From contig JBAZER010000027.1 of assembly GCA_041653795.1 (NCBI GenBank), positions 1 to 30,050 on the forward strand: a stretch of DNA of 30,050 nucleotides. Direction: 5' to 3'. This DNA is from Candidatus Omnitrophota bacterium (GTDB lineage Bacteria > Omnitrophota > Omnitrophia > Omnitrophales > Aquincolibacteriaceae). Shown here one piece after another: positions 579-29,691 of the stretch (the stretch's first letter is position 1; each line of letters begins with the position of its first letter). The notes beneath the pieces are model-generated. The model searched no databases and had not been told where the DNA came from. It saw only the letters and a program-made list of their open reading frames with translations. The position numbers and the translations under genes were made by a program.

Positions 579-602
579 AAATGGTCGGGGTGACAGGAAT
601 TG
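579..602. repeat. 24-bp direct repeat (1 mismatch) of the 3' end of tRNA-Pro plus 3 nt of its 3' flank (AAATGGTCGGGGTGA[C/G]AGGAATTG); the other copy is 904-927, inside and next to the real tRNA
   Basis: Direct sequence comparison of 579-602 with 904-927; similarity ends immediately afterwards (no second full tRNA). Confidence 0.7.
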
Positions 603-862
603 GCTCCCCTCCGGGGCAGGCCACCCGCACTTATAAACATGACTTTTGTCATGTTTATCGTCAAGTGCTCCCTTCAATTCCTCTCGACACGAAGGGGCCT
701 GGTTCTCAAACCAGGTCCCGACGTTGACGTAGGGCGAAATCCCTTGAAAGCCCACGTCATCGCACTTGTGCATTGAGCACAAGTGTCAACCCGAAGTAAA
801 GATCGCCCTAATGCAAAAAACGCATTAGGACAGACCATTTTGTTTACTCAAAAACAAAAATA

Positions 863-893
863 AAAGGCCTTCCAAAAAGGAAGGCCTTTTATT
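863..893. terminator. Bidirectional intrinsic terminator: AAAGGCCTTCC-aaaaa-GGAAGGCCTTT with T-runs on both sides (TTTTATT on plus, TTTTATTTTTG on minus); ends the tRNA-Pro transcript
   Basis: 11-bp perfect stem, 5-nt loop, flanking U-tracts in both orientations; lies 14 nt past the tRNA 3' end. Confidence 0.6.
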
Positions 894-906
894 CTGCGTA
901 ACAAAA

Positions 907-982
907 TGGTCGGGGTGAGAGGAATTGAACCTCCGACATCTTGCTCCCAAAGCAAGCGCTCTAGCCCCTGAGCTACACCCCG
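907..982 (-). tRNA. tRNA-Pro, anticodon TGG, CCA encoded
   Basis: The reverse complement folds as a canonical cloverleaf: acceptor CGGGGTG/CACCCCG, D-arm GCTC..GAGC, anticodon stem CTTGC/GCAAG with loop TTTGGGA, T-arm GGAGG-TTCAATT-CCTCT, discriminator A, then CCA. Confidence 0.85.
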
Positions 983-1061
983 ATGTATCCTATTTATAAA
1001 AAATCAATTGAAACATCGGGGTAGTCCTGATTTCCTTAGATTTTTTTAAACAGAAATCAGG
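978..1061. promoter_or_regulatory. tRNA-Pro upstream module. Hairpin 1 is CCCCGATGT...ACATCGGGG (978-1020), overlapping the tRNA 5' end and enclosing a TATAAA -10-like box. Hairpin 2 is CCTGATTTC-cttagatttttttaaaca-GAAATCAGG (1026-1061)
   Basis: Inverted repeats read directly; the same two-hairpin layout, sharing GATGTATCC[T/A]ATTTAT, is found upstream of tRNA-Glu. Confidence 0.45.
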
Positions 1062-1122
1062 GCACACCGACGTAAATGTTATTGTTATTGTATCGACGGA
1101 ACCCGCGGATGGCAAATGCTTC

Positions 1123-3955: not shown

Positions 3956-4425
3956 CGGTTCGTAAGAAAATTAAATACAGGCAAGAGAGCGCTTGTGTAA
4001 AGCGCCGTCATCGCGATCATCCCCAAATACCCCCAAACGAAGGACGGCGGCAATTCGCCCGCATAGCTCACCAGAAGTCTTAAAGCCCCCGCACAAAAGA
4101 CAAAAAGGAACGTAATGATGAGATAGATCCCCGGCATTTGGCGTTCCATTTTCCGGACTAAAAAATCAAGCGCCAGGGCCAAGGCGACCAGGAGAGTCGC
4201 ATCGAGCCCGATCAAACCACCCCCCAAAAGGTCCCGTAAAAGCCCGGCCCAGAACGCGACGTAAACGGTCTTGGAGGACCCCCATTCGAAAGCGGCGTAG
4301 CAAATGAAGAGGTAAAGGAGGCTCGGATATACGGAATAAATCTGAAAGACCGGCATCACAGACCCGTCCAGGACCGCGAGCAGGAGAAAATAAAGAATTA
4401 CTTTTGCGGAGACGAGACGAGGCAT
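3910..4425 (-). CDS. mreD: Rod shape-determining protein MreD
   Basis: 171 aa polytopic membrane protein sitting between mreC and mrdA. Confidence 0.7.
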   Translation of the reverse strand: MPRLVSAKVILYFLLLAVLDGSVMPVFQIYSVYPSLLYLFICYAAFEWGSSKTVYVAFWAGLLRDLLGGGLIGLDATLLVALALALDFLVRKMERQMPGIYLIITFLFVFCAGALRLLVSYAGELPPSFVWGYLGMIAMTALYTSALLPVFNFLTNRWFDHSSAKQYELFR

Positions 4426-5198
4426 AGCACTTCCTCAAGCTTGGAAAACGGCACGGAAGGTTTGACGAGAGCGAGAAGATGCAGTCCGTCGCTGTCGCGC
4501 TCGACGGATTCGATTTTCCCGATCTGGAGGCCTTTTTGAAAAATACTTCCGACGCCGGACGTGATCACATCCTCCCCGATCGCAACCTCAGCATCCAGGG
4601 CCAGATATTTCATTTGCAGCCTGTCCGTACCGATCCCGGCGATGATTCCCTGGGCACGGCTTGTCGCGGTGAGCGCACTTACGCGGGAATCCGAGTCCGG
4701 CAAAAGGATTGCGTGAGCCGTGTAGGGTTCGACTTCCAGAATCCGTCCCGCCAATCCTTCCGGCACGACTACCATCATGTCTTTTTTGAGATTGTGGCGG
4801 CTCCCCTTATCCAAAAGAATAACTTTTTTCCAGGGTGTCACATCTTCTCCAATCACCCGGGCACCGATGGTGCGCGTGGCAAGCGGCAGGCCAAAGTTAA
4901 GCAGTTTCTTGAGCCGCCGATTCTCCCGATCTATTTCACGAAAACGGCTCAGTTGACCTTCAAGCGCCTGAATGCGCGCACGGTATTCATTCTGTTTTCC
5001 GACCGCGTTCAAAAAATTCCCGGATTGATAGCGAACCATGTAAAGGCCCTCCCGAAGACTGCTTCCGAGTACAAGCGCGGGCCGGACGACGGTGGAGAAA
5101 ACAGAATGGACAGACTCGTTCAAACGGGGGTATTGAAAAAAAACAATGAGGGCTATGACGGGAACCGCAAGAAAGTAATACGAACGCCAGCGCCGCAT
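4398..5198 (-). CDS. mreC: Rod shape-determining protein MreC
   Basis: 266 aa; N-terminal TM, coiled-coil segment, C-terminal beta-domain; located between mreB and mreD. Confidence 0.85.
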   Translation of the reverse strand: MRRWRSYYFLAVPVIALIVFFQYPRLNESVHSVFSTVVRPALVLGSSLREGLYMVRYQSGNFLNAVGKQNEYRARIQALEGQLSRFREIDRENRRLKKLLNFGLPLATRTIGARVIGEDVTPWKKVILLDKGSRHNLKKDMMVVVPEGLAGRILEVEPYTAHAILLPDSDSRVSALTATSRAQGIIAGIGTDRLQMKYLALDAEVAIGEDVITSGVGSIFQKGLQIGKIESVERDSDGLHLLALVKPSVPFSKLEEVLCLVSSPQK

Positions 5199-5381
5199 GG
5201 GGGCAAAATCTCCGATAAGCGAAAAAAAAGATTCTGAAAAAACGACTGCTTCAGATACCAGGAGGTCACTTTCGGGGAGCGCTAAAACGGGGAAAATTCT
5301 CTAGCCTTTGTCCGCTATTCAAGAAAAAAACTGAAGACAAGGACGGCACTGCGAACCCATAAAATCAACAGAAACGCAGTA

Positions 5382-6434
5382 CTAGTATTCCCGGGTAGCG
5401 TTGCTGTTCACCGACAGGCGCTTCAGAAGGTGGAAATCGCTCAAATAACGACCCGTACCAAGCGCCACGGCGGTGAGAGGATCTTCCGCGATGTGAACGG
5501 GAAGCCCTGTTTCTTCGCTGATCAACTTATCAAATCCCCTTAAAAGCGATCCCCCTCCTGCCAAGATCAAACCCCGATCAATCAGATCCGCGGATAATTC
5601 CGGCGGCGTCCGCTCCAGCGCGATACGAACAGCTTCAAGGATAGCAGAAAGCGGCTCGGAGAGGGCTTCACGGATTTCTTCGCTGGTCACACTGATCGTT
5701 TTCGGCAATCCGGCGAGAACATCGCGTCCTTTAACGTCCAGTGTCGTTTCTTCTTCGAGAGGGTATGCGGAACCGATACGGATCTTGATCTCTTCGGCCG
5801 TACGCTCCCCGATCATCAAGTTATAGGCCTTTTTCAGGTGCGACGTGATCGACTCATCAAACTCATCGCCGCCGATGCGAATGCTTTTTGCAAACACGAT
5901 ACCCGAAAGAGAGATCACGGCAATCTCGGTCGTTCCGCCGCCGATATCAATGATCATGTTCCCGGCCGGCTCATGGATCGGAAGTCCGACACCAATCGCT
6001 GCGGCAATGGGTTCCTCCACAAGATAGACCGGCGTGCGAGCTCCGGCCCGTTCCGCAGAATCTTTCACGGCGCGTTTTTCGACTTCGGTGATCCCGCTCG
6101 GAACTGCGATCACGACACGCGGGCTGATACCGGTCTTGCGACGATGGACTTTGCGGATAAAATAGCGGAGCATGGCTTCGGTAATATCAAAATCTGCGAT
6201 AACACCGTCCTTCATGGGACGAATGGCGGTAATATTGCCCGGTGTGCGACCGAGCATGCGCTTGGCCTCTTCCCCGACAGCAAGGACCTGGTGGGTCGAA
6301 CGATCAATGGCTACTACAGAAGGCTCACACAACACAACGCCCTGGCCTTTGACGTAAACAAGGGTATTTGCGGTGCCAAGGTCGATACCAATATCACTCG
6401 AAAAGAATCCTAACAACTTGTCGATCAAAAACAT
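5382..6434 (-). CDS. mreB: Actin-like rod-shape protein MreB. The true start is the internal Met ([24 protein letters not shown]...); the listed ORF 5382..6644 has a 70-codon spurious N-extension that overlaps aroA
   Basis: Strong MreB N-terminal motif [30 protein letters not shown] and an actin-fold body; 350 aa from the internal start. Confidence 0.9.
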
Positions 6435-6534
6435 GGGCTCTGCCTTTTTGTATCTGTCGCGTGGGCTGGCATTTATAGAGGCCGTAGTATATCGAAAGCT
6501 TTTTTCACTGTCAAACCAAAACCATACGTACGTT

Positions 6535-7827
6535 TCAGGGCTTGAGAAGCCGGCGAAAGTGATCCATGAAAGCGGGATAAGAGGTCGCAATACATGCCGT
6601 GTTTGTAACCGTGATCGTCCCCTTCGAGGCAAGGCTTGCCACACCCATACTCATTGTCGTCCGGTGATCTCCGAAACTCTCGACGGTCGCGCCATGAAAC
6701 CCATCCACACCCCGGATCAGAGATCCGTCCGGAAGCTCTTCGATCGATGCCCCGATGGCCTTGAGATTCCGGACCATAGACTGAATACGGTCGGTTTCCT
6801 TGACACGCAGTTCCGCCGCTCCTGAAATAAGGCTTTCCCCTTCCGCGAGCGCCATCGCAACCATCAGAACCGGCAGTTCGTCGATCAGGGACGGGATCTC
6901 CCCGTGAGTGATCCCCGTACCTTTCAGTTTCGCACCGCACACGTGAATAGTCCCCATCGGCTCCGGAACCGTTTTCGTTATCTGTGTTTCAATCCTCGCA
7001 CCCATGCGCTTCAAAACTTCGAGAAATCCGGTACGTGTGGGATTCAATCCGACATCCTGAACGGTCACTTCGGACCCCGGGATCATCGCAGCACCCACGA
7101 CAAAAAAAGCGGCGGATGAAATATCGCCCGCAACGCGCGCATGCATCGGCAAAAGCATTTCTGTTTTTTCAACGATAAGATGATTGCCGATTTTCTGGAA
7201 ACGCGCTCCGGCCGCTTCAAGAAACCGCTCCGTATGGTCGCGCGACGGGATGGCTTCACGGACGATCGTTCTTCCCTCAGCGTACATTCCCGCAAAAAGA
7301 AGCGCGGACTTGACCTGCGCGCTTGAAAGTTTATTATCGAAATCAATCCCGCGAAGTTTGCCGCCGCGGATCGTGAGCGGCGCAAAATTGCCGTTCTCTC
7401 CGCCTCGAATCTGTGCGCCCATTTGTTTCAGAGGATCGGTCACACGACGCATGGGCCGGACCGAAAGAGACGGGTCCCCGGTCAACACGGCTTCGAAGCG
7501 CTGACCCGCCAGGATCCCCAAAAGAAGTCTCATGGAAGTCCCGGAATTCCCGAGATAAAGTTCCTGACCCGGAGCAGAAAGCCCTCGAAGCCCCCTTCCT
7601 ACTATCCGGACCTTGCCTGTTCCTTTTTCATGTTGGATTTCAACACCCATCCGGCGCATGGCTTCCAGGGTGTGAAGGCAATCTCCGGCCTCCAGGAAAT
7701 TCTCGTAGGAACTCTCTCCCTCGGCTAAAGCGCCGAAAAGGATCGCCCGGTGGGAAATGGATTTATCACCCGGAGGGGCATAGGTTCCGTGAAGCCGACC
7801 GGGACCTGAAAATGAAAGAGAGGGCAT
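6535..7827 (-). CDS. aroA: 3-phosphoshikimate 1-carboxyvinyltransferase (EPSP synthase)
   Basis: 430 aa; N-terminal GDKSISHR... and overall EPSPS fold signature. Confidence 0.9.
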
Positions 7828-9505: not shown

Positions 9506-9650
9506 AATGCTTTCTCCTTTTGGTTTGAACCGAGTTCCCGTATCCGATGTCCCGGACCCGCGCCCACGGCCTTTACTGGGTTAGTATCATACAATACAGT
9601 TTCAAAGACGACAATAAAGCTTTTCTGTCCAAGTCTTTATTTCATTTGGT

Positions 9651-9800
9651 TAATGGTGACTTGGACTGCCCTGGTTACCCATTGATTTTTTCATGAGAAC
9701 CAAGGACTGTCCAGATCTCTTGTTTCTTTTTTATAATGGCGATCTGGACTGCCCTGATTACCCGTTGATTTTTGAATGAGAATCAGGAGCTGTTTCTGTT
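9651..9800. repeat. Two tandem ~70-bp repeats (9651-9725 and 9733-9800, ~85% identical) in the nrdR-SWIB spacer. Each contains a hairpin CC(C)TGRTT-[acccRttgattttt..atgag]-AAYCAGG, with a compensatory G:C to A:T change between the copies
   Basis: Read directly: arms 9669-9676/9698-9705 and 9752-9759/9781-9788. The single mismatch in copy a becomes a G-U wobble only in a minus-strand RNA. Confidence 0.5.
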
Positions 9801-18829: not shown

Positions 18830-18875
18830 CAGTCCCAATACCTATCAATTTCAGCTTTGCTGAAATTGGGGCTGT
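18830..18875. promoter_or_regulatory. Nested dyad element AGTCCCAAT-acctat-CAATTTCAGC-ttt-GCTGAAATTG-GGGCT, 35 bp upstream of purF; a second copy is at 25391-25434
   Basis: 10-bp perfect inner inverted repeat plus an outer 9-bp imperfect one; not followed by a T-run on either strand. Confidence 0.4.
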
Positions 18876-18945
18876 CCAAACTGCCTTATTGGAAAAGAAA
18901 CCGAAAGTTTGGGCTGTACTAATACCGCAAACCCTCAAAATTTAT

Positions 18946-19045
18946 ATGCGTTGCTCCAGTTATTCCCTCCTGTAGGGCACATTTAAATGTGCCCTACGGA
19001 AGAGAGGATAGAGCGAATATCTCTCAGGAAACCGGAACAATGCAT
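18946..19045 (+). mobile_element. MITE copy 1 (100 bp). Imperfect ~16-bp TIRs (ATGCGTTGCTCCAGTT / AACCGGAACAATGCAT), a central 26-bp perfect palindrome GTAGGGCACATTTAAATGTGCCCTAC, and a 5-bp TSD TTTAT (18941-18945 and 19046-19050). Sits between purF and purL
   Basis: Three near-identical copies in the window, each with its own 5-bp direct duplication. Confidence 0.65.
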
Positions 19046-19063
19046 TTTATATAAAATGCGGTA

Positions 19064-22120: not shown

Positions 22121-22159
22121 TTTCCGCCAGAGGCGGACACAAACTCGCAATAACACATT

Positions 22160-22259
22160 ATGCATTGTTCCGGTTTCCTGAGAGATATTCGCTCTATCCT
22201 CTCTTCCGTAGGGCACATTTAAATGTGCCCTACAGGAGGGAATAACTGGAGCAACGCAT
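22160..22259 (-). mobile_element. MITE copy 2 (100 bp, inverted orientation, identical to copy 1), TSD ACATT (22155-22159 and 22260-22264). Lies in the purQ-purS spacer
   Basis: Exact reverse complement of copy 1, flanked by a 5-bp direct repeat. Confidence 0.65.
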
Positions 22260-22270
22260 ACATTCTTTGT

Positions 22271-23559: not shown

Positions 23560-25002
23560 TTAAAAATGAACCTTACGCACTTCGTTTCGTAAGCTCTTTT
23601 TACGTATCATCCCAGAAAAAGACTGGCCTGGTTTATACGTGACCCCTTTATCGGTAACCGTTGATGCATACAAAAAATCTTTTAAAACCCTTCGTTTCGA
23701 AAACATTTCAATTCCCGTACGTTTCAGAATGACCGGCACATTCTTGAGGTGTCTGTCATAGCTGAAAACCGCGCGGATCTCCTGGGGCGTCAGGACTTTC
23801 AAGATCTTCTCGTCTTTCAGCACCACCTGCTCCAGGTAAAGCTTTTCATCTTCCCAAAGCTTCCTGGCCGCATCCTGCACAAGCTTGTAGCCTTCCTCGC
23901 GCGTCAAGCCCTTCTCCACGAGGGCAAGAAGCAGGCTTTGCGAAAACACCATTCCGCGGCTCGACTCCAGATTCTTGAGCATGCGGTCCTTATTGACCAC
24001 GAGGTTCTCGATCACGTTCTGCATGAGCCCAAGCATGTAATCAAGGAGGATCGTGCTGTCGGGGAAAATGACGCGCTCGACGGAAGAATGCGTGATGTCC
24101 CGCTCGTGCCAAAGTGCGATATTCTCAAAACCCGCGAGCGCGTTCCCGCGAAGAATGCGCGAAAGTCCTGCCACACGTTCGCAGGTGATCGGGTTGCGCT
24201 TATGCGGCATGGCTGAGGAACCTTTCTGCCCTTTTGAAAAAAATTCCTGCACTTCAAAAATCTCTGTCCTCTGAAGACCCCGGATCTCGGTCGCAAGTTG
24301 TTCGAGCGTTCCACCAACAATTGCGATTGCACCAAGATATTCCGCATGACGGTCGCGCTGAAGGACCTGCGTCGAAACCGGCGCCGGGTTCAGCCCGAGC
24401 TTCTTGCAGACAAATTCTTCGACCCTGGGATCCACATTTGCAAAAGTCCCGACTGCGCCTGAGATCTTGCCATAGCGAAGATTTTCTTTGGCGGCCTCAA
24501 GACGCACGAGGCCCCGTTTACATGCGGCATGGAAAAGCGCCATCTTGAGCCCGAACGTGATAGGTTCGGCATGCACGCCGTGCGAGCGCCCCACCATAAG
24601 GGTACGGGCATGTTCTTTGGCTTTTTTGCCGAGAAGGGAGATAAGTTTTTTCAGTTCGCGGATAAGGATATCCGAGGCTTCCTGGACCTGGAGCGAAAGC
24701 CCGGTATCCAGAACATCTGATGAGGTCAGTCCAAAGTGGACGTAGCGGCCGGCAGGGCCGGCGTTCTCGGAAATATTGGTAAGAAAAGCAATGACGTCGT
24801 GATTGACGACCTTTTCGATCTCTTTGACTCGTTCAATGTCGAATTTCGCCCGTGCACGGACTTTGGCGGGAACATCTTTGGGGATATAGCTGTAACGTGC
24901 AAGGCCCTCAAGCGCGGCCAGTTCCACCTCAAGCCACTTTTGGAGCTTGTTCTCTTCCGTCCAGACCTTCGCCATTTCCTGGCGTGTGTAACGAGAGATC
25001 AT
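23560..25002 (-). CDS. purB: Adenylosuccinate lyase. Start at the internal MISRYTRQEMAKVW with RBS AAGGAAGGTGG; carries a ~50-aa basic C-terminal extension beyond the usual PurB end
   Basis: Fumarate-lyase/PurB signature (...SSAMPHKRNP...); start codon 33 nt downstream of the tRNA-Glu 3' end. Confidence 0.9.
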   Translation of the reverse strand: MISRYTRQEMAKVWTEENKLQKWLEVELAALEGLARYSYIPKDVPAKVRARAKFDIERVKEIEKVVNHDVIAFLTNISENAGPAGRYVHFGLTSSDVLDTGLSLQVQEASDILIRELKKLISLLGKKAKEHARTLMVGRSHGVHAEPITFGLKMALFHAACKRGLVRLEAAKENLRYGKISGAVGTFANVDPRVEEFVCKKLGLNPAPVSTQVLQRDRHAEYLGAIAIVGGTLEQLATEIRGLQRTEIFEVQEFFSKGQKGSSAMPHKRNPITCERVAGLSRILRGNALAGFENIALWHERDITHSSVERVIFPDSTILLDYMLGLMQNVIENLVVNKDRMLKNLESSRGMVFSQSLLLALVEKGLTREEGYKLVQDAARKLWEDEKLYLEQVVLKDEKILKVLTPQEIRAVFSYDRHLKNVPVILKRTGIEMFSKRRVLKDFLYASTVTDKGVTYKPGQSFSGMIRKKSLRNEVRKVHF

Positions 25003-25035
25003 CTTGTGTCCACCTTCCTTATGGCCCACAACCAA

Positions 25036-25113
25036 TGGTAGCGCTAACGGGATTTAAACCCGTGTTTCTGCCTTGAGAGGGCAGCGTCCTAGATCAGGCT
25101 AGACGATAGCGCC
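25036..25113 (-). tRNA. tRNA-Glu, anticodon CUC, CCA encoded. The T-loop is unusual (TTTAAAT) and the D-loop has no GG
   Basis: Reverse complement GGCGCTATCGTCTAGCCTGATCTAGGACGCTGCCCTCTCAAGGCAGAAACACGGGTTTAAATCCCGTTAGCGCTACCA. 7-bp acceptor, Glu-like D-arm (TCGTCTAG...AGGAC), anticodon stem CTGCC/GGCAG with loop CTCTCAA. Confidence 0.7.
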
Positions 25114-25363
25114 CTGATGTATCCAATTTATTTTCCCACATGGCTACATTAGGGCTGCACTGATTTCTCGATTCTTTTCTCAATAGAAAATCAGGCGCCC
25201 TGATGGACCTATTCAATCAGGCGCCATACAAACACGGGGCCTGTCAGAAACTAACCAACGATTGAAAACTGATTACGCCCTGATGGATCCAATTCATTTT
25301 TCCAATGGCTCCATTAGGGCTGCATTGATTTCCCGATTCATTTCTATATGGAAAATCAAGCGG
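25109..25363. repeat. Two tandem ~88-bp units (25109-25197 and 25275-25363, ~85% identical) directly upstream of tRNA-Glu. Each has hairpin 1 GCCCTGATGKA...TMCATTAGGGC and hairpin 2 YTGATTTCYC...RGAAAATCAR. A diverged middle segment also starts CGCCCTGATGG
   Basis: Read directly. Three compensatory base-pair changes between the two copies; G-U wobbles appear only in the plus-strand RNA sense. Confidence 0.6.
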
Positions 25364-25390
25364 GGGGATTGAAAATCCTTCAAACAAGTC

Positions 25391-25434
25391 CAGTCCCAAT
25401 TCTTTTCAATTTCAAAAAATCTGAAATTGGGGCA
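25391..25434. promoter_or_regulatory. Second copy of the nested dyad: CAGTCCCAAT-tcttt-TCAATTTCA-aaaaatc-TGAAATTG-GGGCA. Lies upstream of the tRNA-Glu/purB transcription unit
   Basis: Same outer and inner arms as 18830-18875, but a different loop sequence and length. Confidence 0.4.
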
Positions 25435-25566
25435 GCCCTCGTCACCATTCAAAAAACAAAGACAAGGGCAGTATAGCTTTGCCCCTATAGGATGTCAACG
25501 GAACTAGTCCCGGTCACCTTAAATTCAGCAAAAGTCGGGGCGATCGAACGACGCGGAAAGACAATA

Positions 25567-26887: not shown

Positions 26888-27123
26888 CGCTTCTGGTATC
26901 GGCTAAACAACCCCAGGACTAGAGACTAAGAACCAAGAGCCTATCCTGATAACAATGTTGCGTCATTGCGAGGAACCTGCGAAGCAGGGACCGTGGCAAT
27001 CTCGTTTTTTTCGTTCTTGTAGAAAAAGATCGCTACGCCCTCTTCTCCGCCAAAGGACGGATTCGTCCGACGCCTTGTGGCGAAGGGGCCCGCGATGACA
27101 AATTGAAATCTGGAGAACTTAAA

Positions 27124-27223
27124 ATGCGTTGCTCCAGTTATTCCCTCCTGTAGGGCACATTTAAATGTGCCCTACGGAAGAGAGGATAGAGCAAATATCT
27201 CTCAGGAAACCGGAACAATGCAT
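27124..27223 (+). mobile_element. MITE copy 3 (100 bp, 1 mismatch to copy 1), TSD TTAAA (27119-27123 and 27224-27228). Sits between xerD and the flavoprotein gene
   Basis: Same TIRs and palindrome; flanked by a 5-bp direct repeat. Confidence 0.65.
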
Positions 27224-27232
27224 TTAAAGTTT

Positions 27233-28208: not shown

Positions 28209-28375
28209 CTATTCTTCTACAATTACCGCGAAGCCTTTTTCCACCAACTGTTGATTGACATAAACCCCGTTCACAAACACGTCAGCCAGGTAGCGGTCGT
28301 ACTTGCACTCGCGCCCTAATGTCCCGAGTACTACCCGGCGAGTTTTGGACAACTCGTCCTGGGTTGTCCGACTTG
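28209..28375 (-). pseudogene. Truncated duplicate of the 3' end of the neighbouring nuclease gene (encodes ...KYDRYLADVFVNGVYVNQQLVEKGFAVIVEE*). It has no start codon and lacks a ~75-bp segment present in the intact gene
   Basis: Translating the minus strand gives 31 aa nearly identical to the C-terminus of the 28390..29691 product; DNA blocks CCCGAGTACT and GGCGAGTTTTGGACAACTCG are repeated. Confidence 0.5.
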
Positions 28376-28389
28376 TTGCTGGCTCCAGA

Positions 28390-29691
28390 TTATTCCGCTA
28401 CTTTGACAGCGTAGCCTTCATCGAGCAGTTTTTGGTTCACGTACACACTGCTCACAAAAACATCCGCCAAGTAGCGGTCGTATTTATCTGACTTCACGGT
28501 TTTGATGAGGATCGGCGAATTTTTTCCAAGCATCTTCTCAAGCGCCTTCTTCGCTCCCATGCCGTCCGCCGTCGCGATCTCAGGCGCGTCAATTCCGCGC
28601 AGGCGAAGCTTTTGGACTGTCCGGAACCCGAAACCGAGATCCACAACAGCCTTGATCGTGTCGCCATCAATGACTTCGAGGACTTTGATTTCATAAGTAT
28701 ACCCGGGCTCAGTAGCCCGAGTACTGCCCGTCTCGACTTTTGCCTTCTCTTTATAAATGGCAGTCGGGACGGCCCCAATCTCCGCTGCGCTACGATTGAT
28801 AGGTATTGAGACCGGCGAGTTTTGGACAACTCGCCCGGGGCTGTAAAGCTCTAGGGAATATTTCCCATTTGGGTCTTGAGAGGAGGTGACGACATCCCCT
28901 TCTTTGAAGGCCTTTGTGTCGGCCACGACTTCTGACAGTCGAAGGTAATTCGAGAACCCAAGATCGAGGACTCGCTCACTTTCTTCAGTACCGCAGACTA
29001 CGCGGTACGTGTGCGGAATGCCGGGTTTGGCCGTGAGTTTGGCTTCTTTTTTTGGGACTTGCATCCCATTTCTTGCGGCTTTGCGCTTTCTTACTTCGGC
29101 ACGAACTTGATCCTGCGTCCAGTTCTCCTTCGCTGCTTTTTCTTCCAGCTCGGCACGTTCATCAGGGTCATTCACGGAAAGGAGTGTTTCATAGTTGGCC
29201 CAGCTTAATTTTCCGGGCGCCCGGAAATTCGGGTAAGTGCGGGCGAACTGAAGCATGTAGTAGAGCTCGGTATCACTCATACCCAGATCTTTGGATAATC
29301 TTAAGATCACCTGTTTGCCGTAATCGGCGCGCTCTTTGTGCTGAAGCACATGCGCATCAATGAGTCTGCCGATCTCCCAGGCCTCACGCACGCGTTCCTG
29401 TTCCACGGCCTTCTCGACACGGGCACGGCTCTCAGTCCGCGCCCCGCGAATCGCAGTAAGTAATTGATCATAAGTTCCAACTTTGGTCGCGGACACTGTA
29501 GACGATTGCCCCAAATCGTCACTGCGTCGTGCCTGTTCACCGCGTTTTTCAGCGGTCCCTGTGGGATTGCGAACAGGCGAAGTTTGAACCTGCGCCGCAA
29601 ACCCCAAGGAAACACACTGGAAGAATAGAAGGAAGGAAATAACTGCAAGCCTAGCCACATCACGAATCAACATAGGTCTATAACCTTTCAA
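28390..29691 (-). CDS. Secreted or membrane-anchored two-domain nuclease. It has an N-terminal hydrophobic signal/anchor, a YhcG_N (DUF1016)-like domain (LSWANYETLL..NDPDER...ENWTQDQV) and a C-terminal staphylococcal/thermonuclease (SNase) domain (VIDGDTIKAV...LRLRGIDAPE...DKYDRYLADV)
   Basis: Motif-level matches to the N-terminal domain of the YhcG family and to the SNase catalytic region; 433 aa. Confidence 0.7.
   Translation of the reverse strand: MKGYRPMLIRDVARLAVISFLLFFQCVSLGFAAQVQTSPVRNPTGTAEKRGEQARRSDDLGQSSTVSATKVGTYDQLLTAIRGARTESRARVEKAVEQERVREAWEIGRLIDAHVLQHKERADYGKQVILRLSKDLGMSDTELYYMLQFARTYPNFRAPGKLSWANYETLLSVNDPDERAELEEKAAKENWTQDQVRAEVRKRKAARNGMQVPKKEAKLTAKPGIPHTYRVVCGTEESERVLDLGFSNYLRLSEVVADTKAFKEGDVVTSSQDPNGKYSLELYSPGRVVQNSPVSIPINRSAAEIGAVPTAIYKEKAKVETGSTRATEPGYTYEIKVLEVIDGDTIKAVVDLGFGFRTVQKLRLRGIDAPEIATADGMGAKKALEKMLGKNSPILIKTVKSDKYDRYLADVFVSSVYVNQKLLDEGYAVKVAE

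Follow-up and report, generated by a model that had tools for sequence, protein, structure and literature searches.

What are the paired hairpins that precede the tRNA-Pro gene of an uncultivated Candidatus Omnitrophota bacterium, and why does a similar pair precede its tRNA-Glu gene? The question arises from a 30,050-nt stretch of DNA (contig JBAZER010000027.1 of assembly GCA_041653795.1, positions 1 to 30,050; hereafter the window), whose initial annotation described the hairpins as a module of stable-RNA promoters and a possible binding site for a nucleoid or transcription factor. The analysis reported here indicates, with a probability of about 0.8, that they belong to an abundant, non-autonomous, insertion-polymorphic palindromic repeat family of Candidatus Omnitrophota, of which positions 979-1062 are one copy. 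The idea of a family of structured repeats was thus right, while that of a promoter or factor module is not supported.

Both hairpins were located at each tRNA gene, as had been proposed. At tRNA-Pro (anticodon tgg; 907-982, minus strand; ARAGORN, and 67.4 bits with the Rfam tRNA model), an 84-nt repeat copy occupies 979-1062 on the minus strand, corresponding to a covariance model match at 975-1065 (49.6 bits, E 8.6e-12) with boundaries taken from in-silico excision. Hairpin 1 of this copy, CCCCGATGT...ACATCGGGG (978-1021), has its outer bases in common with nucleotides 1-5 of the tRNA; hairpin 2, CCTGATTTC-N18-GAAATCAGG, spans 1026-1061, and the two-hairpin fold has z-scores of -5.2 (minus strand) and -7.1 (plus strand). 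At tRNA-Glu (anticodon ctc; 25036-25113, minus strand; ARAGORN/Rfam tRNA), an 83-nt copy lies at 25112-25194 on the minus strand (model match 25109-25200, 66.8 bits; boundaries again from excision). Its hairpin 1, CCCTGATGTA/TACATTAGGG (25112-25154), overlaps the tRNA 5' end, and its hairpin 2, CTGATTTCTC-N15-AGAAAATCAG, is found at 25160-25194. The sequence that the two first hairpins were said to share, the 16-mer GATGTATCCWATTTAT, is exact at 982 and 25116 and recurs with two mismatches at 25282.

With filters off, the covariance model identifies nine copies of this dispersed repeat in the window. All of them form two hairpins on either strand (z = -3.4 to -7.1), and hairpins of the form CTGATT-N12-30-AATCAG number three, against 0.03 expected. 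Seven of the nine copies adjoin no stable-RNA gene, two are reversed and one falls within an open reading frame (ORF). The hairpins at 9669-9705 and 9752-9788, flagged early as related, fall within two tandem copies in the nrdR-SWIB spacer with a period of 83 nt, the distal one at 9625-9706 (minus strand, 62 bits) and the other, the top score in the window, at 9707-9792 (minus strand, 87.8 bits). A hairpin at 698-715 that had been grouped with them has a 4-nt loop and a covariance model E-value of 0.61, and it was left out of the family. The loop was likewise less uniform than described: GATTYTTTT is exact only at 1039 and 25170, and other copies carry GATTTTTTC (9684 copy), GATTTTTGA (9767 copy) or GATTCATTT (copy 25278-25359).

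Several copies had escaped the initial annotation. Three are in the tRNA-Glu leader: a second full copy with no adjoining tRNA (25278-25359, minus strand; model match 25275-25365, 62.9 bits), which is 86% identical to the tRNA-Glu-proximal copy with compensatory stem changes; an internally deleted copy on the minus strand (CCCTGATGGAcctattcAATCAG, then GCGCC; 25198-25220); and a reversed copy of the CCCAAT...ATTGGGG subtype (25391-25471, plus strand; 42.4 bits, nhmmer E 7.7e-16), which directly adjoins the -10 box of the putative tRNA-Glu promoter. Another CCCAAT-subtype copy lies at 18830-18916 on the plus strand, between two minus-strand genes (nhmmer E 1.4e-19; covariance model 29.3 bits; fold z -3.5). 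A copy at 28728-28814 (minus strand, nhmmer E 2.9e-15) is in frame within ORF 28390-29691, which encodes DUF1016_N and SNase domains. The ninth copy, weak and divergent (5302-5384, minus strand; 24.8 bits, E 5e-5), is in the spacer between ORFs 5382..6644 and 4398..5198, which are MreB- and MreC-like by their position in relatives.

The family extends far beyond the window. A pattern from one subtype, GTCCCRAT-N18-26-GAAATTGGGGCNNYCC (45 positions, made up of 26 fixed or degenerate bases and an 18-26-nt gap), matched at least 120 contigs of the JGI metagenome collection. GTDB genomes were scanned with the palindrome of a second repeat family (see below) for an unbiased sample of related genomes, which gave 10 contigs (~55 kb), 8 labelled as Omnitrophota metagenome-assembled genomes (MAGs), with five two-hairpin copies inside. 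In the pooled 961 kb of Omnitrophota-related DNA, a set of fragments of many genomes from which per-genome copy number is an extrapolation only, nhmmer detected ~216 copies in 195 clusters, amounting to 18.7 kb or ~2% of the DNA. It detected none in 1.1 Mb of control contigs, which were viral contigs from a loose hairpin-pattern scan with 120 chance matches. The covariance model gave 198 matches in 718 kb. Rfam 15 at the gathering threshold matched only the two tRNAs in the window, permissive Rfam searches of 450-1150 and 25000-25520 returned nothing credible on the repeats, and a literature search on Omnitrophota repeats yielded no account of such elements.

The usual unit consists of two hairpins over 81-84 nt, joined by a linker of 3-5 nt, and one to five hairpins are commonly arrayed together, in either orientation. 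In each hairpin, a TCC/CCC-stem arm and a stem-GGA/GGG arm enclose an A-rich loop of 15-25 nt. Type 1 is the CCTGATT..AATCAGG hairpin first described at the tRNAs (CCTGATTCTC..GGTAATCAGG); type 2 is GTCCCAAT..ATTGGGGC, also written GTCCCAAT..CAATTTCnnn..nnnGAAATTGGGGC; type 3 has the loop ACCATT..GAAAAGAAA and many compensated stem variants, including TCCAAACT, TCCTGACT and TCCTTGTC. The three types are interchangeable and combine, in both orientations, into mosaic arrays such as those of the tRNA-Glu leader and loci L231, L137 and L248.

Covariation supports these stems throughout the family. In a MAFFT alignment of 19 sequences of the CTGATT module type, 89.7% of cells are paired, against 30-51% in slid controls, with 33 double-sided changes against 10.7 in shuffled alignments. 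A model-fitted alignment of 150 matches, which leans to the structure of the model and makes the 19-sequence figure the conservative one, has 93.3% of cells paired (29-49% in slid controls), 495 double-sided changes against 149 shuffled, and compensatory changes at 18 of 18 pairs. Loops are more conserved than stems across the family. The forward strand folds better in 72 copies and the reverse in 37 (mean -26.5 vs -25.3 kcal/mol). G-U counts are equal on the two strands, and much of the fold difference comes from a T-G pair conserved by common descent; therefore no inference on RNA versus DNA, or on the acting strand, is drawn from it.

Orthologous sites were compared for insertion polymorphism. 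A BLAST analysis of the flanks revealed many filled and empty orthologous sites, including at least 8 clean pairs with sharp boundaries, in which TAG, CAG, CGG, TGG or TAA is single in the empty site and present on both sides of the filled one. For instance, L240 reads ...cgcTAG[TCCC...AGGA]TAGacg where the empty L212 reads ...cgcTAGacc. Other pairs are L177 (CAG[...]CAG) with L199 (CAG), L256 (CGG[...]CGG) with L163 (AGG), and L233 (TGG[...]TGG) with L196 (TGG). Among 105 copies of the commonest subtype, the two flanking trinucleotides are identical in 70, mostly as TAG, CAG, CGG or TGG, compared with 21 in shuffles (maximum 33). Over all 105, the trinucleotide heading the copy is TAG in 39, CAG in 29, CGG in 17, TGG in 8 and CTG in 5.

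Copy number and position also vary at the rodA locus, for which three relatives were compared (L002, L005 and L008, with 94%, 91% and 89% RodA identity). The window has the gene order rpiB-glyA-nrdR-SWIB-...-mreB-mreC-mreD-PBP2-rodA-tRNA-Pro, all on the minus strand. Homologues of its RodA range in identity from 94% down to 58%, and those named after a taxon are, with one exception, labelled Omnitrophota/Omnitrophica. Its nrdR-SWIB spacer, whose flanks are 83-94% identical among the relatives, contains two copies in the window, one in L002 and none in L005 or L008, and the L002 copy is very different from those of the window despite flanks of ~90% identity. All four genomes retain a SWIB promoter-like block, TTGTCG-17-TATGAT, which lies outside the repeats on the downstream side of the insertion point. 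The rodA-tRNA-Pro interval holds two tandem copies in L002 and none in L008. In L005, one copy directly follows the rodA stop codon, then comes the block gaagaaTTTGCCAtccgaaggttccgccgaTAGAAT, and tRNA-Pro begins 11 nt later; in the window, the corresponding block, TTGCCA-17-TACAAT, follows the rodA stop and the copy is between block and tRNA-Pro. The copy near tRNA-Pro thus stands on opposite sides of the promoter block in the two genomes. Such differences in copy number and position between close relatives are unlike what a conserved promoter module would display.

The genomic distribution is that of a dispersed, mostly extragenic element. Only 27-28 of the 195 clusters are within long ORFs, compared with 74% of random positions. 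In co-directional spacers, 40 copies run along transcription and 37 are opposed to it. Copies in the ++, --, divergent and convergent spacer classes number 51, 26, 33 and 16, in proportion to the spacer totals of 40.5, 21.9, 26.6 and 14.8 kb. This lack of orientation or spacer-class bias therefore argues against a strand-specific promoter, terminator or leader-RNA role for the family as a whole.

A small minority of copies, about 8 of the 195 clusters, is in frame within protein genes, in several reading frames and in both orientations. For the copy at 28728-28814, a close homologue in L136 is without the corresponding ~37 amino acids, and Pfam domains are found on both sides. The other in-frame copies, in UvrA (L207, L157 and L236), AddA/AddB-like proteins (L251 and L208) and a histidine kinase (L210), are likewise flanked by Pfam domains. 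The copy at 28728-28814 and an adjoining small hairpin (together 28728-28845) are translated in frame between DUF1016_N and SNase as …VSIPINRSAAEIGAVPTAIYKEKAKVETG…, and the small hairpin recurs at 28335-28367.

At the two tRNA genes, the sequence around the repeats is consistent with insertion into the gene itself. A likely tRNA-Pro promoter, TTGCCA-17-TACAAT (1087-1115, minus strand; 10/12 matches to the sigma-70 consensus), is upstream of the repeat and is the sole promoter-like site in 500-1300; in L005 the equivalent site is TTGCCA-17-TAGAAT, 11 nt from the tRNA. The likely tRNA-Glu promoter, TTGACA-17-TATACT (25470-25498, minus strand; 11/12), lies ~350 nt upstream of the tRNA, and all repeat copies of this locus are between the two. 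It is almost identical in L248 and L258, where the positions and numbers of copies differ. No promoter-like site was found inside the two-hairpin modules at either tRNA.

The flanks preserve candidate traces of the insertion event. At tRNA-Pro, the trinucleotide CAC at 976-978 (GTG on the tRNA strand, tRNA nucleotides 5-7) is repeated at 1063-1065, where it begins an apparent relic of the old tRNA 5' end (1063-1073, minus strand; ACGTCGGTGTG on the tRNA strand vs GCGTCGGGGTG in L005). In-silico removal of 979-1062 together with one CAC produces ...TACAATaacaataacatttacgtCGGTGTGTAGCTCAGG..., collinear with ...TAGAATggcgcaagcgtCGGGGTGTAGCTCAGG... of L005 except for one mismatch, which falls in the tRNA 5' end; the element is therefore located after nucleotide 7 of tRNA-Pro. 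Similarly, at tRNA-Glu, GCG occurs at 25109-25111 (tRNA nucleotides 3-5) and again at 25195-25197, within a relic GGCGC at 25195-25199, and this pattern of relic and flank recurs at each tRNA-Glu copy, including the deleted copy and further upstream.

A mechanism consistent with these features can be proposed. The element would insert within the first 5-7 nt of the tRNA gene, downstream of a sigma-70-type promoter, and an intact tRNA 5' end would be rebuilt from the G-rich sequence that closes the element at its 3' side (CGGG or GG) and from the duplicated trinucleotide (GTG or CGC). At tRNA-Pro, the element end CGGG plus the duplicated GTG would restore CGGGGTG and leave the displaced 5' end as the relic. 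Hairpin 1 would then overlap the tRNA, and a short relic would stand upstream, because the element end rebuilds the tRNA 5' end; copies may be stacked at tRNA-Glu because a rebuilt site can be targeted again. The copies would be co-transcribed as a long leader (~100 nt at Pro, ~350 nt at Glu), removed by RNase P and other 5' processing. Two other explanations of the junctions were set aside: a hairpin-1 arm as a leftover tRNA 3' end (CCCCGA) fits tRNA-Pro and misfits tRNA-Glu, and a 9-nt target duplication (CGGGGTGTA in L002) was replaced by the 3-nt model, which fits the window, tRNA-Glu and non-tRNA sites. The proximal copy of L002 may be a slippage duplicate.

Part of the association with tRNA genes remains. 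Among 29 tRNAs in the 961 kb, copies adjoin the 5' end at loci of Pro, Glu and His, with Leu and Gly as possible further cases, where ~1 would be expected by chance, a rough estimate from loci that are not all independent and from a repeat-selected sample. Beyond the window, the tRNA-adjoining copies are at tRNA-Glu in L248 and L258, tRNA-Pro in L002 and tRNA-His in L143. Insertion into the gene 5' end accounts for this adjacency better than promoter function does.

The alternative that survives best, although we judge it very unlikely, is that the repeats are a functional leader RNA of pre-tRNAs, for example one whose structure would pair with the first bases of the acceptor stem and so time RNase P cleavage or protect the 5' end, and that they spread through this usefulness. 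Their position between promoter and tRNA means that they are expected to be transcribed, hairpin 1 pairs with tRNA nucleotides 1-5, covariation is strong, and the tRNA-Glu-proximal copy is retained in three genomes with compensatory changes. However, the same element occurs in ordinary spacers in either orientation and inside genes, neither of its strands folds much better than the other, genomes differ in how many copies the tRNA-Glu leader holds and where they lie, and L005 has a functional-looking promoter-tRNA-Pro junction without a leader copy.

The original proposal, in which the two hairpins form a cis-regulatory unit of stable-RNA promoters with a -10 box in hairpin 1 and a nucleoid-protein or transcription-factor site in hairpin 2, appears highly improbable. 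The module is directly upstream of both window tRNAs and of tRNA-Glu, tRNA-Pro and tRNA-His on other contigs, its loops outconserve its stems as expected of a loop reader, and enterobacterial REP/BIME sequences are reported to bind DNA gyrase and DNA polymerase I, among others (PMC2817692). Set against this are the seven window copies away from stable-RNA genes, the two reversed copies and the one in an ORF, the absence of orientation bias relative to transcription in the pooled DNA, and the SWIB and tRNA promoters, which are outside the repeats and conserved with or without them. The supposed -10 box also dissolves on comparison, being an A/T-rich loop common to the whole family that reads TAAATT, TAAGCG and TGAATG in orthologous tRNA-Glu copies. 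Hardly credible, finally, is the view that the copies are immobile products of local tandem duplication or slippage, with the likeness of the Pro and Glu leaders due to shared promoter-region ancestry: the tandem units at tRNA-Glu in L248, the 83-nt period in the nrdR-SWIB spacer and the short tRNA-like sequence that ends each unit, a possible slippage anchor, would suit it, but ~195 clusters lie at unrelated loci on many contigs, filled and empty orthologous sites have sharp boundaries (several without a neighbouring copy), the nrdR-SWIB copies of the window and L002 are very different within similar flanks, and the tRNA-Pro 5' relic upstream of a single copy is the trace of an insertion and not of a tandem duplication. 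Tandem duplication probably adds copies locally; it cannot be the origin of the family.

The mobile-repeat interpretation has its own weak points. The empty alleles could be precise deletions between 3-nt direct repeats and not sites that were never occupied, in which case the duplicated trinucleotide is no proof of a target-site duplication. The tRNA-Glu-proximal copy occurs in each of the three genomes with the locus, its hairpins kept by compensatory changes, and such retention could also mean a selected function. The likely promoters are consensus matches backed by conservation and not mapped starts, and most loci were gathered with a family-derived pattern, which biases densities outside the window upward. 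In addition, no transposase or recombinase linked to the repeats was seen in the 961 kb, but this is a small fraction of the genomes, and the absence says little.

A mobilising enzyme was sought within that sample. With E. coli RayT as query (phmmer and tblastn, all ORFs as well as the DNA), the 961 kb, which represents small parts of many genomes, gave a best E-value of 0.019; an all-against-all protein search revealed no multicopy protein or transposase; and of 14 ORFs with a repeat on either side, none resembled a transposase in its N-terminal sequence. Conserved loops combined with covarying stems point to a trans factor that recognises hairpin shape and loop sequence. Mobilisation may be carried out by a trans-acting enzyme of this kind.

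The linker between the hairpins may bear on target choice. It covaries with the flank (TAG with CAA, CGG with CCG, TGG with CCA, CAG with CAG or CTG), the outer position pairing in 92 of 94 cases, which could reflect a guide-like choice of target or a mere extension of the stem by the flanks. It is conceivable, though unlikely, that the repeat is a hairpin transposon choosing its target by pairing or identity with a short internal guide. The process would be akin to the guide/cleavage-site pairing of IS200/IS605 and RAYT systems or to the core matching of a site-specific recombinase, and a sub-lineage ending in ...ATC(A/G)GGG would be tuned to the G-rich 5' ends of tRNAs, inserting there repeatedly and rebuilding the tRNA each time.

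Among described repeats, the REP/BIME sequences (repetitive extragenic palindromes and bacterial interspersed mosaic elements), which RAYT tyrosine transposases mobilise, are a close parallel. They are likewise short imperfect palindromes of very high copy number, with more than 100 copies in a genome, mostly extragenic and with covarying stems, a short conserved head precedes each hairpin, several hairpin types form mosaic arrays in both orientations, and copy number varies by strain. The REP head 5' of the palindrome is GT(A/G)G (PMC2817692), whereas the Omnitrophota heads are Y-R-G (TAG, CAG, CGG). REP hairpins are compact and G+C-rich, in contrast to the 15-25-nt A-rich loops seen here, and the usual Omnitrophota unit is made of two different hairpins in direct order over 81-84 nt. 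IS200/IS605-type enzymes produce no larger target duplications (PMC2817692), whereas the Omnitrophota repeat has a duplicated flank trinucleotide. A rayT gene between two inverted REPs is characteristic of genomes with REP sequences, and no RAYT gene was found within the 961 kb of genome fragments.

Minimal derivatives of IS200/IS605 (palindrome-associated transposable elements) resemble the repeat in having ends set by subterminal hairpins and not by inverted repeats, and in a short internal sequence at the hairpin foot that is complementary to the cleavage-site bases of the flank or terminus, to which the 92/94 linker pairing corresponds. They differ in that the two Omnitrophota hairpins are unlike each other, the same trinucleotide stands on both sides and no orientation bias relative to gene direction exists; no Y1 transposase was seen in the 961 kb. 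The parallel with integrative elements that target tRNA genes is that the insert replaces the displaced tRNA end and a partial tRNA copy remains at the far side. Those elements, of which the one in tRNA-Pro of L005 is an example, are kilobase-sized, carry an integrase and usually replace the 3' part of the tRNA, while the repeat is 84 nt long and takes the place of 2-4 nt at the 5' end.

Bacterial miniature inverted-repeat transposable elements (MITEs), including the Correia elements of Neisseria, and the modular pneumococcal BOX elements are small, non-coding, hairpin-forming and often co-transcribed with the genes beside them. The Omnitrophota repeat is similarly small, non-coding and insertion-polymorphic with a short flank duplication, and it is modular as BOX is. 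Its identical 3-nt flanks (the 70 of 105) agree with a fixed-length target duplication as in MITEs, although deletion between repeats would look alike. Its ends share only TCC...GGA, its inverted repeats are internal to each hairpin with none long or terminal, its duplication is Y-R-G and not TA, and the sampled DNA yielded no parent insertion sequence whose ends match. The Rickettsia palindromic elements (RPEs), reportedly described by Ogata et al. in 2000, are ~100-nt palindromic repeats found between genes and in frame within protein genes, to which they add a peptide without destroying the protein. The likeness to RPEs is one of behaviour alone, namely the in-frame residence in protein genes; no similarity in sequence is known, the hosts belong to different phyla, and the in-frame copies here make up only ~8 of 195 clusters and use several reading frames and both orientations. 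We know of no flanking trinucleotide duplication in RPEs. The family is thus best placed among selfish or mosaic palindromic repeats of the REP/BIME, MITE and RPE kind, with two notable features in the trinucleotide duplication that covaries with the linker and the apparent rebuilding of the tRNA 5' end.

Further features were observed at the tRNA loci. In L248, two perfectly identical tandem 84-nt units stand at the tRNA-Glu 5' end (9578-9745); they reflect either two insertions at a very recent date or duplication by slippage between CATCAGGGCGC repeats. Between promoter and tRNA-Glu, the window, L248 and L258 share a conserved core leader segment of ~50 nt (25226-25275, minus strand, in the window; in L248 it reads AACTTGTTTTTCAATCGTGGGTTAGATCTGTCACAGGGCACGTGTTT), although the surrounding repeats differ; it starts with GGCGTAA, resembling the tRNA-Glu 5' end. 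Downstream of tRNA-Pro, within 583-900 (minus strand), positions 583-617 form a degenerate duplicate of the tRNA 3' part (T arm and acceptor, ...CAATTCCTGTCACCCCGACCA), 324 nt from the real tRNA; the two have separate terminator hairpins behind them (863-893 and 538-566), and the duplicate resembles a distal attachment site left by an integrated element that was lost or is miniature. The relative with 91% RodA identity (L005 11210-21083 and L006) has its tRNA-Pro interrupted after the anticodon stem by an element of 10 kb or more, which encodes HTH_17 excisionase-like, SNase, Ada_Zn_binding and Prim-Pol/PriCT_1/AAA_25 proteins. Insertions of two different kinds, the repeat copies and this larger element, therefore make tRNA-Pro a hotspot. 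A 76-nt stretch at 619-694 (minus strand) is 79% identical to L181 9998-10070 and lies among tRNA genes in both; it contains the hairpin ATAAACATGAC-N4-5-GTCATGTTTAT followed by GCGGGTGGCC, matches no Rfam family and may belong to a small RNA that is not yet described.

A second, unrelated repeat family of ~110 nt is also present in the window, with copies 96% identical at 18938-19047 (plus strand), 27116-27225 (plus strand) and 22150-22265 (minus strand). It is centred on the perfect palindrome GTAGGGCACATTTAAATGTGCCCTAC, which occurs in 10 GTDB contigs, often at contig ends; 8 of the 10 are from three Omnitrophota MAGs, and in L138 it adjoins a two-hairpin copy. This family looks like a young MITE.

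The results define a very abundant mosaic repeat family in an uncultivated phylum, and the hairpins should not be labelled stable-RNA promoter or operator elements when Omnitrophota genomes are annotated. Repeats of this kind break metagenome assemblies; they also enlarge the spacers between genes and now and then lengthen a protein, UvrA for example, by a peptide segment. Several metagenome contigs end at repeat copies (e.g. L144, L159 and L168), which suggests that the repeats fragment short-read assemblies; the ENA contig k141_2053310 (L001), with an identical rodA, ends inside tRNA-Pro (~945 in the window), beside a repeat copy. The trinucleotide duplication that covaries with the linker and the rebuilding of tRNA 5' ends are handles for finding the moving enzyme, and the long hairpin-filled leaders raise the question of their effect on tRNA maturation. 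If target choice by an internal guide were true, it would be a previously undescribed mode of targeting for a miniature bacterial element, and the tRNA loci would exemplify, in nature, an element that inserts into the 5' end of a tRNA gene and repairs that end itself.

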